Shown here one piece after another: positions 8,015 to 52,344 of a stretch of 64,000 nt of DNA (positions within the stretch are counted from its first letter, which is position 1; each line of letters starts with the position of its first letter). Source of the stretch: Eubacteriales bacterium. GTDB taxonomy: Bacteria > Bacillota > Clostridia > Oscillospirales > Oscillospiraceae. The stretch is from NCBI GenBank assembly GCA_030536515.1, contig JAUNPV010000003.1, positions 78,282 through 142,281 on the forward strand. The letters run 5' to 3'. The translations under genes and the position numbers were made by a program. Under the pieces are notes generated by a model that was not told the DNA's origin, did no database searches, and saw only the letters and a list, made by a program, of their open reading frames with translations.

Positions 8015-8101
8015 CAGGGCGGCCTGTGAATAATCGTATGATTGCCACCGGCAATCATTTTGATTTAGGATGTGCTGCGCACAGCACCACCTCAGGCCGC
8101 C
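8015..8101 (+). mobile_element. 62-bp cassette (8027-8088) inserted in the loop of a GGGCGGCCTG-ACCTCAGGCCGCC REP
   Basis: Removing 8027-8088 restores the REP seen intact at 41999-42024; related cassettes at 30498, 43287 and 49397. Confidence 0.7.
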
Positions 8102-13682: not shown

Positions 13683-15587
13683 TTAGATGCCCAGAGCGGC
13701 GCGCTTGGCCTCGATACGCTCGATCATCAGATCGCCCAGCTTCTCGATGTCCTGCTCCACGGTGTAGTTGGCTTCAACCCAATCCTTGACGCCGTGCTCG
13801 CCGGTCAGCCAGTCGCAGACCTCGGTGGAACCCTTGACGTAGGGGTCCACGCCCAGGAAGGTATCCAGGCCGGAGGCCACCACGTAGTTGCCGATGGAGA
13901 CAGCCTTCTCGGACATCCACTCGGGAGCGCAGCCCACAACAGGCAGCTGGGAGATGGGAATGCCGGAGTCCTTGGACAGCTCGGCGGCCAGAATCAGCAT
14001 ACGGGAGATATCCACGCAGGAGCCCATGTGCAGCACGGGAGGAATGTCAGCCAGCTCGCACACACGCTTCAGGCCGTCGCCGCAGTATTCCTTGGCCTTG
14101 ACGGGGTCCATGAGACCGGCCTTGGCGGCAGCCTGGGCGGAGCAGCCGGAGACAATCAGGATGATGTCGTTTTCCAGCAGCTTCTTCATCAGACCCACGT
14201 GAGCGGAGTCGGGACGGACCTTGGGGTTGTTGCAGCCGACCATGGCCACAGCGCCGCGGAGGACACCGGAGGTCACGCACTCCAGCAGAGGCTTGGTGGT
14301 GCCGAACTCGTCCACCTGAGAGTTGGCCACGCCGTCCAGGACCTTCACAATGGCCTCCACAGAGTAGCCCACACGGGCGTTCTGCTTCTGAGAGGGGATG
14401 TTGACCAGCTCGGGCTTGCGGTTCTTGAAGTTCTCAATGGCCATCTTGACGATTGCCTTGGCGTTCTCACCGGCGGTCTCGGCGTTGAAGCGGATGAACT
14501 CAGAGTCGGGCATCCGGGCGATGGGAGAGGTGGTGATGAACTTGGTGTGGAAGCACTTGCTGAGGGGGCCCAGTGCGGGGAAGATGCACTGCACGTCCAC
14601 AACAATGGCCTCGCAGGCGCCGGTGAGAACCACGTTCTCCTGGTTCAGGAAGTTACCGGCCATGGGGATGCCGTGACGCATGGCAACCTCGTTGGAGGTG
14701 CAGCACACGCCGGAAACGGTGATGCCCTTGGCACCCAGGCTCTTGGCGTAGGCGATCATCTCGGGGTCGTTTGCGTAGTGGACCACCATCTCGGACAGGG
14801 AGGGGTCATGGCCGTGGACGACGATGTTGACGTTGTCCTTCTCCATCACGCCGATGTTGGCGGTGGTGTCCAGGGGCTTGGGAGTGCCGAACAGGACGTC
14901 GGAGAACTCGGTGCCCATCATGGAGCCGCCCCAGCCGTCGGACAGGCCGCAGCGCAGAGCCTGGCGAATCAGAGCCTCAGGCAGAGAGGAGCAGCCCATG
15001 TGGGTCATGTGCAGAGCGGTGGCGACTTCACGGTCGATGGCCCGGGGCTCAATCTCAGCGTCATGCCACAGCTTCTGGGTGTGCTCGGGAGCACGCTTCA
15101 GGAAGCGCTGGGTGCCGAAGGGCTTGCCGTACTCCAGCAGGCCAATCTCAGCCATTTCGTGAGCCAGGTCGTAGATATCCTTGCCCTCGGTCTCCACGCC
15201 CCACTCGTGGGCAATGCGGATGAGCTTATCGGGGTCCTTGACGGTGTAGTTGCCGCCTTCCTTGGCCTGATGCAGGGTGTGCATAATCTCACGACCGTGG
15301 TCGGAGTGGGTTGCGGAACCGCCTGCGGTGAAGCGCAGGAAATTCCGGGCGACGATGCCGTGCACGTCGCAGCCGCAGATGCCGCGGGGAGATTTCTTGG
15401 TGATGCGGCAGGGTCCCATGGAGCAGATACGGCAGCAGGTGCCTGCCTCGCCGAAGCCGCAATGGGGGGTCTGGTTCTTGACCCGCTGCTGCCAGGTGTC
15501 AGCTCCAACCTTTTCTGCGTTTTCCAGCAGAGAGTTGGTGGCAGCTTCCATCTCCTCGATGGTGGTTAAAGATGCCCAATCCTTCAA
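13683..15587 (-). CDS. cooS: Anaerobic Ni,Fe carbon-monoxide dehydrogenase catalytic subunit
   Basis: CGFG..GTCCRICSMGPC..GICG (D/B clusters); C-cluster ligand motifs HGHDP, GVCCT, DVQC, GCNN, SGC, GSCVD and SEKA all present. Confidence 0.95.
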   Translation of the reverse strand: MKDWASLTTIEEMEAATNSLLENAEKVGADTWQQRVKNQTPHCGFGEAGTCCRICSMGPCRITKKSPRGICGCDVHGIVARNFLRFTAGGSATHSDHGREIMHTLHQAKEGGNYTVKDPDKLIRIAHEWGVETEGKDIYDLAHEMAEIGLLEYGKPFGTQRFLKRAPEHTQKLWHDAEIEPRAIDREVATALHMTHMGCSSLPEALIRQALRCGLSDGWGGSMMGTEFSDVLFGTPKPLDTTANIGVMEKDNVNIVVHGHDPSLSEMVVHYANDPEMIAYAKSLGAKGITVSGVCCTSNEVAMRHGIPMAGNFLNQENVVLTGACEAIVVDVQCIFPALGPLSKCFHTKFITTSPIARMPDSEFIRFNAETAGENAKAIVKMAIENFKNRKPELVNIPSQKQNARVGYSVEAIVKVLDGVANSQVDEFGTTKPLLECVTSGVLRGAVAMVGCNNPKVRPDSAHVGLMKKLLENDIILIVSGCSAQAAAKAGLMDPVKAKEYCGDGLKRVCELADIPPVLHMGSCVDISRMLILAAELSKDSGIPISQLPVVGCAPEWMSEKAVSIGNYVVASGLDTFLGVDPYVKGSTEVCDWLTGEHGVKDWVEANYTVEQDIEKLGDLMIERIEAKRAALGI

Positions 15588-21260: not shown

Positions 21261-21343
21261 GTAGGGAACGGATTTATCCGTTCCGGAGGAAATGCTGTGA
21301 GCATATTCCATGTTCATGCGGAACGGATAAATCCGTTCCCTAC
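21261..21343. repeat. Inverted GTAG REP doublet between ylxQ and infB
   Basis: GTAGGGAACGGATTTATCCGTTCC at 21261-21284 and its reverse complement at 21320-21343. Confidence 0.9.
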
Positions 21344-30497: not shown

Positions 30498-30560
30498 AGT
30501 AAATTAAGGAGCGATTGCCACTGGCAATCGACCTATTTTCATCTGCTGCGCAAAGCACAA
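30498..30560 (+). mobile_element. Cassette of about 62 bp inside a family-G hairpin
   Basis: GCCACCT|cassette|CCCCCGGGGGAAGG versus intact GCCACCTTCCCCCCGGGGGAAGG at about 47732. Confidence 0.7.
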
Positions 30561-42328: not shown

Positions 42329-43255
42329 ATGGCATGGCTGGAAATCACCGTTGAAACCACGCCCAGGCAGATTGGCGCCGCTGTGGCGGGGCTGACCGCC
42401 CGGGGCTTTTCCGACCTGGTCATCGAGGACCAGGGGGAGTTTGAGACCTTTTTGGAGGAAAACCGGGCCTATTGGGATTACATTGACGAAAACCTGCAGC
42501 AGCAGCTCCAGGGCCTGTCCCGGGTGAAGCTGTATCTGGAGGACGACGACCGGGCGGGCATGGAGCGGCTGGAGGCGGCGGTCAAAGAGCTGGGCCTGCC
42601 CATGACCGTCCAGCCCCTGCCGGACACCGACTGGTCCGAGAGCTGGAAGGACAGCTATCCCCCCCAGGAGGTGGGGAAAAACCTGGTGGTGCTGCCCTGC
42701 TGGCTGGCCCAGGAGCCCACGGACCGGACAAGGGTGATTCTGGACCCGGGCCTGACCTTCGGCACCGGGGCCCATCCCTCCACCCAGATGGTCATGGAGA
42801 CCATGGAGGAGGTGGTCCGGCCCGGCTACCGCTGCCTGGACTTAGGCAGCGGCAGCGGCATTCTGTCCATCACCGCCCTGGCCCTGGGGGCCGGGAGCGC
42901 CGTGGGCGTGGACATCGACCCCAAGGCCGAGGACATCGCCCGGGAAAACGCCGCCTACAACGGCATCACCGATGCCTTCACCGCCCTGACCGGCAACGTC
43001 ACCGAGGATAAGGCCCTGATGGAATCCCTGTCCGCCGGAAGCTACGATTTGGTGCTGGTGAACATCGTGGCCGATGTGATTATCGGCCTGGCTCCCATTC
43101 TGCCGGACTTTTTGGGGGAGAATACCACCCTTATCTGCTCCGGCATTCTGGACACCCGGCTGGAGGACGTAAAAAAAACCCTCACCGAAGCGGGCCTGCG
43201 CATTACCCAGGTCAAGGCCAAAGAGGACTGGCGCTGCGTGGTGGCAGGCTGGTAA
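42329..43255 (+). CDS. prmA: Ribosomal protein L11 methyltransferase
   Basis: LDPGLTFGTGAHPST, LDLGSGSGILS, NIVADVI. Confidence 0.95.
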   Translation: MAWLEITVETTPRQIGAAVAGLTARGFSDLVIEDQGEFETFLEENRAYWDYIDENLQQQLQGLSRVKLYLEDDDRAGMERLEAAVKELGLPMTVQPLPDTDWSESWKDSYPPQEVGKNLVVLPCWLAQEPTDRTRVILDPGLTFGTGAHPSTQMVMETMEEVVRPGYRCLDLGSGSGILSITALALGAGSAVGVDIDPKAEDIARENAAYNGITDAFTALTGNVTEDKALMESLSAGSYDLVLVNIVADVIIGLAPILPDFLGENTTLICSGILDTRLEDVKKTLTEAGLRITQVKAKEDWRCVVAGW

Positions 43256-43286
43256 ACGAATGCACCCCAAAACCTTCCCCCGGGGG

Positions 43287-43350
43287 TGGTGCTCTGCGCA
43301 GCAGATAAAAATACCAATGGTTGCCGGTGGCAACCATACCTTAATTTAAT
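43287..43350 (-). mobile_element. Cassette of about 62 bp inside a family-G hairpin (minus orientation)
   Basis: CCTTCCCCCGGGGG|64 bp|AGGTGCCCCAGT versus intact CCTTCCCCCGGGGGGAAGGTGCCCCAGT at about 4721. Confidence 0.75.
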
Positions 43351-43614
43351 AGGTGCCCCAGTGTCGCTACACTGGGGCGGATGAGGAATGCGGGCGGTAA
43401 CGTTATGTGTTGAATACGTAAGTGCCTGCTGAATCTTAACATATTCTACGCACGAACGCATCTGTCAACGTAGGTTCCTTCCCGCATTCCTCATCCGTCA
43501 TCCTGTCCCAGTGTGCGCACTGGAACAGGATGCCACCTTCCCCCCGGGGGAAGGTATTCGCCCTACCGCACCGCTCATAATGAGCGTCGCCCTCATCTGC
43601 ACTCGGCCACCTTC

Positions 43615-43670
43615 TCTCCGCAAGGGGGACGCCGCATCTGTAAGCCGCTGAAGCGGCAACAGCTGCGCAG
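43615..43670 (+). mobile_element. 56-bp second-type cassette inside a family-G hairpin
   Basis: CCACCTTC|56 bp|CCCCGGGGGAAGG; near-identical copy at 52043-52098. Confidence 0.7.
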
Positions 43671-43729
43671 CCCCGGGGGAAGGTTTGGATGCTCTGTCTT
43701 ACATTAAATAAAATCATAAGGAGAAACCT

Positions 43730-44779
43730 ATGTCTATCCCTTATCGTACCCGGCGGGTACTGAAACGAATCGGGACCGTTCTCGGCGTGCTGGTGCTGGT
43801 GACGGTGGTGTTTTGGCTGTGTTGGGTCATCTGGCTCCAGCGGTATGTGGTCTACAGTGACGAGGGCGTGAGCCTGGACTTTGAGCAGTCCTCCTACGGC
43901 CTCACCGGTCAGGTGGCCGTGCCCCCTCAGGCGGAGGAGAATATTTCCATCTTCTTCAACGAGGGCGCCGATGCCATCAACACCGGCAACGAAATGGAGC
44001 AGCTGAACGGCTACTATATCACCAGCGAAATGTTCCAGAAGGACATGGCAACGGTGCTGACCAACATCGAGCGGCTCCCGGCGGGGACCGCTGTGATGAT
44101 TGATATGAAGGGCCCCTTCGGCTCGTTCTTCTACGAGTCCAACCTCAACGACTCCCTGACCTCCGCCAGCACCGACATTGCGGCGGTGGCCAAGCTGGTG
44201 GAGCGGCTGAAAACCAAGGGCTTTTACACCATCGCCCGAATCAGCGCCTTCCGGGACCGGACCTTCGGCGAAAACCACGTCACCAGCGGCCTGTATATGC
44301 TCAGCCGGGCGGGACTGTGGATGGACGAGGACGGTATGTACTGGCTGGACCCCACCAACTCCTCCACCACCAACTGGATCAGCTCCGTCGCCCTGGAGCT
44401 GAAGGATTTGGGCTTCAACGAGGTGATGCTGGCGGACTTCCGGTTCCCCACCTCCGACAAGTATATCTTCGAGGGGGACAAGGATGCCGCCCTCCAGACG
44501 GCGGCCACCAAGCTGATGGAGGCCTGCGCCGCCGAGGACTTTGTGCTGACCTTCTGCGTGGATTCCCCCTCCTTCCAGCTGCCCGAGGGCCGGTGCCGGA
44601 TGTGCCTGCTGGATGTGGACCCCAACAGCGTGGAGTCCAAGGCCAACATGACGGAGCTGGAGGAAAAGGAAATCCGCCTGGTATTCCTCTCCGACTCCGC
44701 CGACACCCGCTACGATGCCTACGGAATCCTGCGCTCCATCATGGTGTCCGAGGAAGTGGAGGCCAGAAAAGGCAACTAA
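43730..44779 (+). CDS. Membrane-anchored putative glycoside hydrolase (DUF4015-like)
   Basis: N-terminal TM; DMKGPFG, IARISAFRD, WLDP, GFNEVMLADFRFP. Confidence 0.65.
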   Translation: MSIPYRTRRVLKRIGTVLGVLVLVTVVFWLCWVIWLQRYVVYSDEGVSLDFEQSSYGLTGQVAVPPQAEENISIFFNEGADAINTGNEMEQLNGYYITSEMFQKDMATVLTNIERLPAGTAVMIDMKGPFGSFFYESNLNDSLTSASTDIAAVAKLVERLKTKGFYTIARISAFRDRTFGENHVTSGLYMLSRAGLWMDEDGMYWLDPTNSSTTNWISSVALELKDLGFNEVMLADFRFPTSDKYIFEGDKDAALQTAATKLMEACAAEDFVLTFCVDSPSFQLPEGRCRMCLLDVDPNSVESKANMTELEEKEIRLVFLSDSADTRYDAYGILRSIMVSEEVEARKGN

Positions 44780-49314: not shown

Positions 49315-49690
49315 TAGGGGAGGGATAATATCCCTCCCGTCGGCCCCCGGCGAGGGGGCCGCTTACAGAGCGACCATCCTGTAGGGGAGGGTCACTATAA
49401 ATTAAGGAGCGATTGCCACTGGCAATCGTTCTATTTTCATCTGCTGCGCAGAGCACCGCCCACCCGTCGGCCCCCGCCAGGGGGCCGCAACCGGCTTTCC
49501 TTATTGGAAAGTCGGTTCATTGTCCACGGCATTACTTTGTTAAATGCTCAGTCCCATTAGATTTATTCGAAAATCCTCGCCGGATTTTCGGCGGGAGGGT
49601 CAGTGACCCTCCCCTACTGGCATGGCAATCTGTTGTTTCCCCGAAAATCCCATTGGATTTTCGGCGGGAGGGATAATATCCCTCCCCTAC
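49315..49690. repeat. GTAG REP cluster (GGGAGGGTCACTGACCCTCCC family) downstream of lexA; one unit is interrupted by the 62-bp-type cassette at 49397-49457
   Basis: Units near 49315, 49381 (interrupted), 49593 and 49666. Confidence 0.8.
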
Positions 49691-51805: not shown

Positions 51806-51874
51806 TAAAAACCTTCCCCCGGGGGGAAGGTGCCCCCGAAGGGGGCGGATGAGGGATGGCGATACTTAGAAATG

Positions 51875-51988
51875 AGTGAAGAAGTAATCGTGAATAGTGA
51901 AGATGTAAGGTGTGGCTTCGCCACTTATTTTAATTCATCGGCGAAGCCGATACCTCACCTCTTACTTCTTCACTATTCACTCTTCACT
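51875..51988. repeat. Inverted pair of purine-rich AGTGAA(G/T) heptamer-like runs inside a family-G doublet
   Basis: AGTGAAGAAGTAATCGTGAATAGTGAAG ... CTTACTTCTTCACTATTCACTCTTCACT; a related run at 32259-32291. Confidence 0.65.
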
Positions 51989-52344
51989 AAAAACCAGGTG
52001 CACGCCATCCCTCATCCGTCTTGCCTTCGGCAATCCACCTTCTCCCCGCAAGGGGGACGCCGCATCCGTAAGCCGCTGAAGCGGCAACGGCTGCGCGGCC
52101 CCCGGGGGAAGGTATTGGGGGTGCGGCGCAAAAATTGGCCCCCACTTTCCGTGGGGGCCGTTGGTTTATGCTTCTTTCAGGGGCAGGGGGGAGATGACGG
52201 GGGTGCCGTCCCGGTTCAGCAGGGGCGTCAGGCCGCCTCTGTTGCCGTTGAATTGGAACAGGTAATTGACGCCGGTCTGCTTATCCACCCAGATTTCCAT
52301 GCCGCTCACGATGCCCTGGGAATAAACTTTGACGAAGCGGTCCA

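Follow-up and report, generated by a model that had tools for sequence, protein, structure and literature searches.

The window analysed here is a stretch of 64,000 nt (contig C27:78282-142281 of genome G000) from a Faecousia species whose assembly comprises 2.63 Mb in 48 contigs, with 58.5% GC and 98% completeness; gene identity to the nearest species does not exceed 80%. One of its intergenic regions, 43255-43730, is 475 bp long and consists almost entirely of nested repeats, whereas in the closest species (G033, G032, G119) the same two genes are separated by only 40-90 bp, which indicates that these repeats were all added in this lineage. This region holds the first of two copies of a 56-nt cassette, called here cassette A, that is inserted in a palindrome of the repeat family G; a second cassette, B, is found in palindromes of the same family and in other hosts (Table 1). 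The letters of cassette A are TCTCCGCAAGG...CAACAGCTGCGCAG in copy 1 and TCCCCGCAAGG...CAACGGCTGCGCGG in copy 2, and both copies show the same flank scheme, CCACCTTC on the left and CCCC(C)GGGGGAAGG on the right. The existence of these two copies, and of their flanks, had been put forward in a sequence-only reading of the window and was borne out when the window was read again; the 51-nt core pattern of the cassette matches exactly two sites in the window and none in 100 shuffles. That reading had named a single duplicated locus with no other inserts as the outcome that would count against it. The flanks outside the G arms differ between the two copies, which are therefore not one duplicated locus, and other inserts do exist. 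The orientation of the two copies with respect to the flanking genes is not constant.

Table 1 Cassettes and host repeats located in the window
Feature	Position in the window	Strand	Description
Cassette B, third host	8027..8088 (C27 + 86322)	+	Tip of GCAGGGCGGCC...GGCCGCC REP-type hairpin
Cassette B in G palindrome	30498..30560	+	After CCACCT, before CCCCCGGGGGAAGG
Family-G composite element	43273..43555	.	Left G with reversed cassette B; right G empty
Cassette B in G palindrome	43287..43350	-	62-64 nt; subtype with GGTTGCC....GGCAACC hairpin; central hairpin and T run terminator-like
Empty family-G palindrome	43536..43554	.	CCTTCCCCCCGGGGGAAGG; paralogous empty site 60 nt upstream of cassette A copy 1
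Left arm of host family-G palindrome, copy 1	43607..43614	+	CCACCTTC; terminates decayed composite right end GCCCTCATCTGCACTCGGCC
Cassette A copy 1	43615..43670	+	56 nt; lower stem with compensated variant CTG...CAG (paired change C-G to U-A)
C run and right arm of host G palindrome, copy 1	43671..43683	+	CCCCGGGGGAAGG
Cassette B, different host	49397..49461 (G000:C27:127678-127742)	+	Tip of GTAGGGGAGGG...CCCACCC REP-type hairpin
Whole family-G composite element	51812..52112	.	Empty G (51812-51830), hairpin, CGGATGAGGGATGGCGA, centre, GCCATCCCTCATCCG, hairpin, cassette A-filled G
Left arm of host G palindrome, copy 2	52035..52042	+	CCACCTTC; preceded by CCCTCATCCG and hairpin CTTGCCTTCGGCAAT
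Cassette A copy 2	52043..52098	+	56 nt; subvariant a2, 3' end GCGCGG
C run and right arm of host G palindrome, copy 2	52099..52112	+	CCCCCGGGGGAAGG

Host palindromes and cassettes in the genome

Family G is the outermost hairpin of a composite repeat of 150-300 bp, in which the order of the modules is G, a variable hairpin H, CGGATGAGG(GATGGCGA or AATGCGGG), the centre, the inverse of these, and G. The genome contains four small ORFs of the DUF559 family (PF04480). One of them, G000:C4:3251-3571, encodes a protein of 133 aa (124.5 bits), with a Vsr-like nuclease fold, and sits exactly within a complete family-G composite, C4:3164-3670 (= L084:1414-1920), in the order G, hairpin, CGGATGAGGGATGGCGA, ORF, TCGCCATCCCTCATCAG, hairpin, G. 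This arrangement indicates that family G is the MITE-like version, without the gene, of a small element that bears a nuclease, and the composite at C4:3164-3670 is likely the autonomous parent of roughly 125 gene-less family-G composites. As regards the host only, G thus qualifies as a DUF559-nuclease-associated palindromic repeat, given that the same terminal modules flank the small DUF559 gene. The other three ORFs are C4:5897-6211, C9:135-449 and C17:29397-29591; this third one is truncated and adjoins a CCTCATCAG-hairpin-G' end.

Cassette A is present in 29-31 copies in the genome, every one of them within the family-G palindrome CCTTCCCCCCGGGGGAAGG. The genome-wide extraction of family-G copies, a check that had been suggested along with the two window copies, gave upon grouping of the inserts ~30 palindromes with cassette A, about 25-34 with cassette B and about 200-250 empty ones, so that each cassette occupies approximately one tenth of the G sites. 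The intact palindrome reads CCTT + 6 C + 5 G + AAGG at the right end of the composite and CCTT + 5 C + 6 G at the left end. When filled by cassette A it reads CCTT-C-(T/C)C-[CCCGCAAGG...GCTGCGC(A/G)G]-CC-CCC-GGGGG, with one C fewer and six Gs at left-end sites; each arm type (6C5G and 5C6G) retains its own G count, the host loses nothing, and the gain in length is 56 nt. Given that the junction sits in a run of C it can be read in two ways, as a 56-nt insert after CCTTC or as a 54-nt core with a 2-nt repeat (CC). The cassette always reads 5'-3' towards the C run, and it is found in the proximal arm, beside the inner modules of the composite, in about 20 cases, in the outer or distal arm in 5, and in a stand-alone G in at least one.

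The copies of cassette A are nearly identical and form four subvariants of 4-6 identical members each. Copies of identical sequence adjoin 6-9 different neighbouring hairpins; the seven copies of subvariant a2 (end GCGCGG) adjoin six different H hairpins. In one composite subfamily, 9 different H sequences were observed at 10 A-bearing ends, and 54 at 98 empty ends. The H diversity of the A-bearing ends is as great as that of the empty ends, which is at odds with one founder insertion that was then amplified together with its composite; the hosts had already diversified when cassette A spread among them. Some co-inheritance of the cassette with its host exists, since all five distal-arm copies bear TAAA/GAAA loops. 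An exact-protein look-up for strain-level alleles of the locus gave a sole other assembly, one contig of 1.5 kb, filled and broken inside the cassette; for the second flanking protein this look-up gave no record.

The same set of checks included larger, gene-bearing inserts at the G site, and one was found outside the window, at G000:C43:20664-21539, where a G palindrome is split by an AT-rich segment of 0.87 kb. The segment carries an ORF for a GNAT acetyltransferase (PF13302, E 2.5e-21) and an apparent C-terminal remnant of an IS30-type transposase; of cassette B only the right third remains, beside the right G arm. Two 'orphan' left arms of G (C4:9615 and C42:10719) were considered as sites of large inserts and rejected, both being truncations.

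Of the 65 copies of cassette B in this genome, 25 reside in G and 40 at the tips of other hairpins, which belong to at least four families; together with G the host families number at least five. Cassette B is also present in 5 of 18 sampled congeners. Its insertion is not clean, for it replaces 2-4 apical nucleotides of the host, and its 3' end (..CTGCGCAGAGCACCR) faces the C run in most hosts (about two thirds of the copies here). The two cassettes had been described as unrelated and as landing within 1-2 nt of each other. They are unrelated overall, except for the octamer CTGCGCAG at the 3' junction, the only sequence common to both, and for their shared orientation towards the C run. As to the landing points, they are 2 nt apart as written, but the true distance is 2-6 nt, because the A junction may lie in the C run anywhere between CCTTC^ and the dyad. 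Within cassette B at window positions 43317-43337 the central hairpin and its T-rich spacer (TGGTATTTTT / TTCTATTTTCAT) score as similar to an intrinsic terminator on both strands, a prediction according to which B may serve as a portable terminator. The 3' mini-hairpin of B, NNNGC-TGC-GCNNN, covaries across subtypes (TCTGC/GCAGA, TCCGC/GCGGA, TGTGC/GCACA, TGCGC/GCGCA).

Relatives of cassette A in other Faecousia species

When cassette A and its arms were used as a query against 400 other Faecousia species, matches were obtained in 32 of them, all spanning the cassette only, at 81-89% identity. In these relatives the layout of the cassette is CCCGCAAGGGGTATGCCGCATCCGTAAG-stem/loop-CAACGGCTGCGC(A/T)A, and it sits at the tip of a palindromic repeat of ~176 nt, K, that is unrelated to G and has 35-66 or more scored copies per genome, numbers that, like all copy numbers in other genomes, are lower bounds given that many assemblies are incomplete or fragmented. 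The empty K reads ...GGAATACTGTATGTATTTCC... (L046-L049, L052-L054) and the filled K, with slashes at the junctions, reads ...TGTA / CCCGC...GCGCAATA / TTTCC... (L050, L051, L056, L057). The difference is 58 nt, readable as a 56-nt core with TA on both sides. In one species, tandem arrays of two and three units with the structure TA-core-TA-core-TA occur in K (L055, L045), and in two more species, G119 and G169, the cassette is found in further contexts (L058, L075). At least four full copies of K are present in the genome studied here, all of them empty. The preferred host of A-type cassettes therefore differs between species, being K in many Faecousia and G here, and from its presence or absence in both K and G we conclude that cassette A is a discrete unit. 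Its ends are fixed, paralogous copies of two host repeats unrelated to each other either contain it or lack it, and it forms tandem arrays. The comparison of empty and filled sites rests on paralogous and not on orthologous sites, and the direction of the change, insertion or precise loss, is one that we infer; an orthologous comparison between K-rich species, whose genes are 76-84% identical, found no intergenic synteny.

Two K copies of one species (G289; L081:4855-5021 and 14120-14349) are 95-99% identical to those of another (G335), while the flanking genes are 76-84% identical. The higher similarity of the repeats suggests either an exchange of miniature repeats between species or a very strong constraint. 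In another species (G300) three matches to the cobalamin riboswitch lie beside a filled K (L042:930-1431 and 2480-2635); they are unrelated to the cassette.

Folding and conservation of cassette A

Cassette A and the G arms are predicted to fold jointly into one long imperfect hairpin (-49.4 kcal/mol, z = -4.7 as RNA; -27.7 kcal/mol, z = -4.5 as DNA), and according to this model the insertion would lengthen the host hairpin rather than break it. Pairing was examined in an alignment of 29 distinct cassette sequences from 26 species, in which 99% of the cells at 14 tested pairs are standard pairs, and controls with the pairing slid are 32-48% paired. Changes on both sides were observed at 4 pairs, a value reached by none of 500 shuffles; the CTG/CAG variant of window copy 1 is one of these double changes. 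The long hairpin of cassette A is thus kept through compensatory changes, and the pairing fits a DNA or an RNA hairpin alike. Palindromic DNA can also retain its pairing by hairpin-templated repair, without selection.

The apical stem occurs in at least eight fully paired versions in this alignment (GCCGC/GCGGC, GCAGC/GCTGC, GCCAGC/GCTGGC, GCCGGC/GCCGGC, GTCGTC/GACGAC, GGCGGC/GCCGCC, AGCAGC/GCTGCT and GCCAGT/ACTGGC). In contrast to this freely varying stem, the lower stem does not vary in primary sequence over at least 26 species, and GCCGCATCCGTAA and AACGGCTGCGC are nearly invariant in the alignment, which suggests a sequence-specific recognition by some factor. The covariance models of Rfam 15 did not match the cassette at the gathering score or at E up to 10, nor the K-borne copies at E up to 0.01; a known RNA family or ribozyme was accordingly rejected.

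Candidate enzymes and comparison with known systems

No gene for a Y1_Tnp/RAYT protein (PF01797) was matched in this genome, which is 98% complete, under conditions in which the controls do match, and only one of five cassette-rich relatives has a Y1_Tnp gene; mobilisation by a RAYT or IS200 transposase was rejected on these grounds. The single IS110 copy lies in an unrelated AT-rich island that has neither a G palindrome nor cassette-like ends, and the sole weak match to TnpB is a zinc-ribbon membrane protein, so both were discarded. DUF559 explains the host G, but it was also rejected as mobiliser of cassette A, since in K-rich species it is missing or not small. An all-against-all comparison of the 4032 ORFs gave no multi-copy ORF or transposase in the assembly, where no parent IS with ends matching the cassette was found either, and no cleavage or integration enzyme for G was identified. 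A phage origin was dismissed because viral contigs contain no exact match for A or B; in JGI metagenome contigs cassette A gave no match.

REP, BIME and REPIN sequences are short GC-rich intergenic palindromes with hundreds of copies, inverted doublets and associated RAYT transposases (PMC3116915, PMC3337134). Apart from the RAYT, the repeats described here share these traits, and they are likewise non-autonomous, with a pairing that is kept by compensatory changes. Cassette A differs in that it is not itself a dispersed hairpin but a second-order insert in the tips of other repeats, and the host G is tied to a DUF559 nuclease gene instead of a RAYT, a gene absent from this genome; moreover, the cassette lacks the 5' GTAG-type foot of REP and is never free, all copies being inside G. 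Classical bacterial MITEs with a TA target duplication include Correia/NEMIS and Nezha, of the IS630 type (PMC3184786). Common features are the lack of autonomy, the stable fold and, in K, the TA on both sides of the cassette together with the empty and filled paralogous sites; in G, however, the flanking dinucleotide is CC and not TA, and the cassette has about one third of the size of typical MITEs. Terminal inverted repeats that match those of an IS are lacking, and the two ends of cassette A, CCCGCAAGG and GCTGCGCAG, do not form an inverted pair either. As a target duplication at the cassette borders, a repeat of 2 nt (TA or CC) would fit, with ambiguous junctions.

PATEs derived from IS200/IS605 insert 3' of one fixed target of 4-5 nt, without duplication, by means of a Y1 transposase. 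In contrast, the left flanks of cassette A vary (CTTC in G, TGTA in K, TTTA in G169, GCAC in G119) and the Y1 gene is missing. Integron attC sites are imperfect palindromes of about 55-60 nt that act as a folded single strand, and their cassettes stack in tandem. The size, the imperfect palindrome and the tandem stacking at one site are shared with cassette A, but its sites are hundreds of dispersed palindromes in place of one attI, and by eye no RYYYAAC / GTTRRRY (R''/R') boxes are present at the cassette ends in the 29-sequence alignment. Judged by the defining features that were tested, cassette A does not qualify as a REP-RAYT element, an IS200/IS605 PATE, a classical MITE or an attC site.

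The SDR families of heterocystous cyanobacteria, SDR1-8 in Nostocales, are reportedly very small non-coding units that form hairpins and are nested in one another or in other repeats. The likeness to these tiny nested hairpin units is by analogy only, for they belong to another phylum, sequence and size class; SDRs are not known to have a mobilising enzyme, and none was found for the cassettes.

In the account of Tobes and Pareja (2006) as relayed by PMC3184786, IS1397 inserts into PU loops, and IS621 and IS1594, of the IS110 family, target REP hairpins. As in those cases, repeated palindromes are here a specific landing site, and the 2-nt core on both sides that is typical of IS110 compares with TA and CC. 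Those elements are autonomous, 1-1.5 kb long and carry a transposase gene, unlike the insert of 54-58 nt without an ORF described here. The system works like the REP-targeting insertion of IS1397 and IS621 (PMC3184786), but is gene-less. No published description of the cassettes, or of repeats in Faecousia, was found in the literature.

Discussion

The occurrence of cassette A in G and K, and of cassette B in at least five hairpin families, indicates that the cassettes are the movable units and that palindrome tips are their landing places. The starting proposal was that the G stem is a recurrent site for different small cargoes, comparable to an att site. Its first part stands, inasmuch as two non-coding cassettes are inserted at nearly the same place, each in about one tenth of the G copies. 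A dedicated site, however, does not agree with the 40 of 65 copies of B that reside in at least four other families, or with the A-type cassettes found in K and in two further contexts elsewhere. The common factor of the landing sites is the palindrome tip, and the insertion specificity seems to travel with the cassette. The best explanation is that cassette A is a local copy of a genus-wide family of protein-less, hairpin-forming modules of ~55 nt that were secondarily inserted in the apical part of longer palindromic repeats.

Regarding the process, we consider it reasonably probable that a discrete non-autonomous module is inserted in a secondary, site-directed manner near an extruded or single-stranded palindrome tip, and that the factor responsible acts in trans and recognises the lower stem, which is invariant. 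The palindrome would extrude as a hairpin or cruciform, or would be single-stranded at the replication fork; the enzyme would recognise the lower stem of the cassette (GCCGCATCCGTAAG / CAACGGCTGCGC) and join the cassette near the tip. If an identical dinucleotide flanks the insert at either end (TA in K and CC in G, the junctions being ambiguous), it could stem from a recombinase whose core spans 2 nt or from a cut staggered by 2 nt, and from either of them tandem stacking would also be expected. The inserted cassette would extend the stem of its host coaxially, so that the hairpin would be lengthened and not destroyed. A broader version of this proposal, which we hold only tentatively, is that both A and B are substrates of a hitherto undescribed structure-directed integration system that places protein-less modules of ~55-65 nt at extruded palindrome tips, with a 2-nt core and a species-dependent choice of target. 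If true, the cassettes would form a further level of mobile DNA, a second tier that has other miniature mobile elements as its hosts and passes from species to species.

It is unlikely, in our view, that no dedicated mobile element is involved and that an apical module is copied between palindromes by template switching or short-patch gene conversion at stalled tips, with a microhomology of 2-5 nt. Such copying would agree with junctions that show identities of 2 nt only (TA, CC), with the 2-4 host nucleotides replaced by cassette B, with the failure to find a transposase with the hairpin modules common to several repeat families and with the recurrence of the first 21 nt of A in the units ACCTTCCCCCGCAAGGGGGGACGCCGCACCCCAAT described below; the tandem arrays could come from slippage. 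Nonetheless, the ends of the cassette do not change between four unrelated host contexts or between species, a regularity that untargeted switching would not yield, the G arms provide only 9-14 bp of homology, and a lower stem that stays invariant over at least 26 species while the apical stem is free suggests recognition by a factor. A G stem that is itself att-like, cut by a G-specific enzyme such as the DUF559 nuclease of the parent element and open to any small cargo, would account for two cassettes and one gene-bearing segment of 0.87 kb that share almost one position in G, itself the terminal palindrome of an element with a DUF559 nuclease gene. We judge it very improbable, because neither cassette is confined to G, A-type cassettes thrive where no DUF559 gene is detectable in the species, and the about 55-60 filled sites contain only two cassette families and not many cargoes.

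The cassette could instead be an optional functional part of the repeat, such as an RNA or DNA hairpin that binds a protein or a structure that stabilises or terminates mRNA, which entered G once or twice and spread with whole composites, its conservation being due to selection and not to recent movement. The strong conservation of the lower stem and the internal loop, with covariation elsewhere, would be expected from such a part, the loops are like stable RNA tetraloops (GCAA, UGAA, GAAA, UUCG), and the loops shared by the five distal-arm copies reveal some co-inheritance. This explanation appears quite improbable in view of the identical subvariants in hosts with unrelated neighbouring hairpins and different inner modules, and of the same cassette in unrelated hosts of other species, in empty and filled copies; the lack of an Rfam match and the inconstant orientation of the two window copies relative to the flanking genes also speak against it. 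Site-directed insertion of a discrete module is the reading that we prefer.

Intergenic palindromes such as REP, BIME and MITE are usually treated as the end products of one mobilising enzyme. The cassettes represent a layer of smaller non-coding modules that uses those palindromes as a habitat, with precise ends, empty and filled sites, tandem stacking and a host that varies by species. If the process is enzymatic, it would amount to a compact reaction of DNA insertion that is guided by structure and whose recognition core, of 26 nt, is invariant. Nested repeats of this kind inflate intergenic regions, as in the gap that holds copy 1, and break short-read assemblies; they probably also affect terminators and the ends of mRNAs in this gut genus, which is common although uncultured.

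Two kinds of tandem unit were also noticed in this genome. Units of 35 nt, ACCTTCCCCCGCAAGGGGGGACGCCGCACCCCAAT, lie upstream of left-end G palindromes on the C2 reverse strand near 21286, and similar ones at C18:2210 and in C32. They share with cassette A its first 21 nt (CCCGCAAGGGGGACGCCGCA), joined here to CCCCAATA, the usual flank of G, and are perhaps recombinant or abortive cassette ends. Units of 46 nt, AGAGCTGTCACCGCAGGTGACTGAGAGGGGTGGTTCTCCCTTTGGG, are repeated without spacers at two contig ends, on the reverse strand of C12 (78338-78520) and at C9:42-130.
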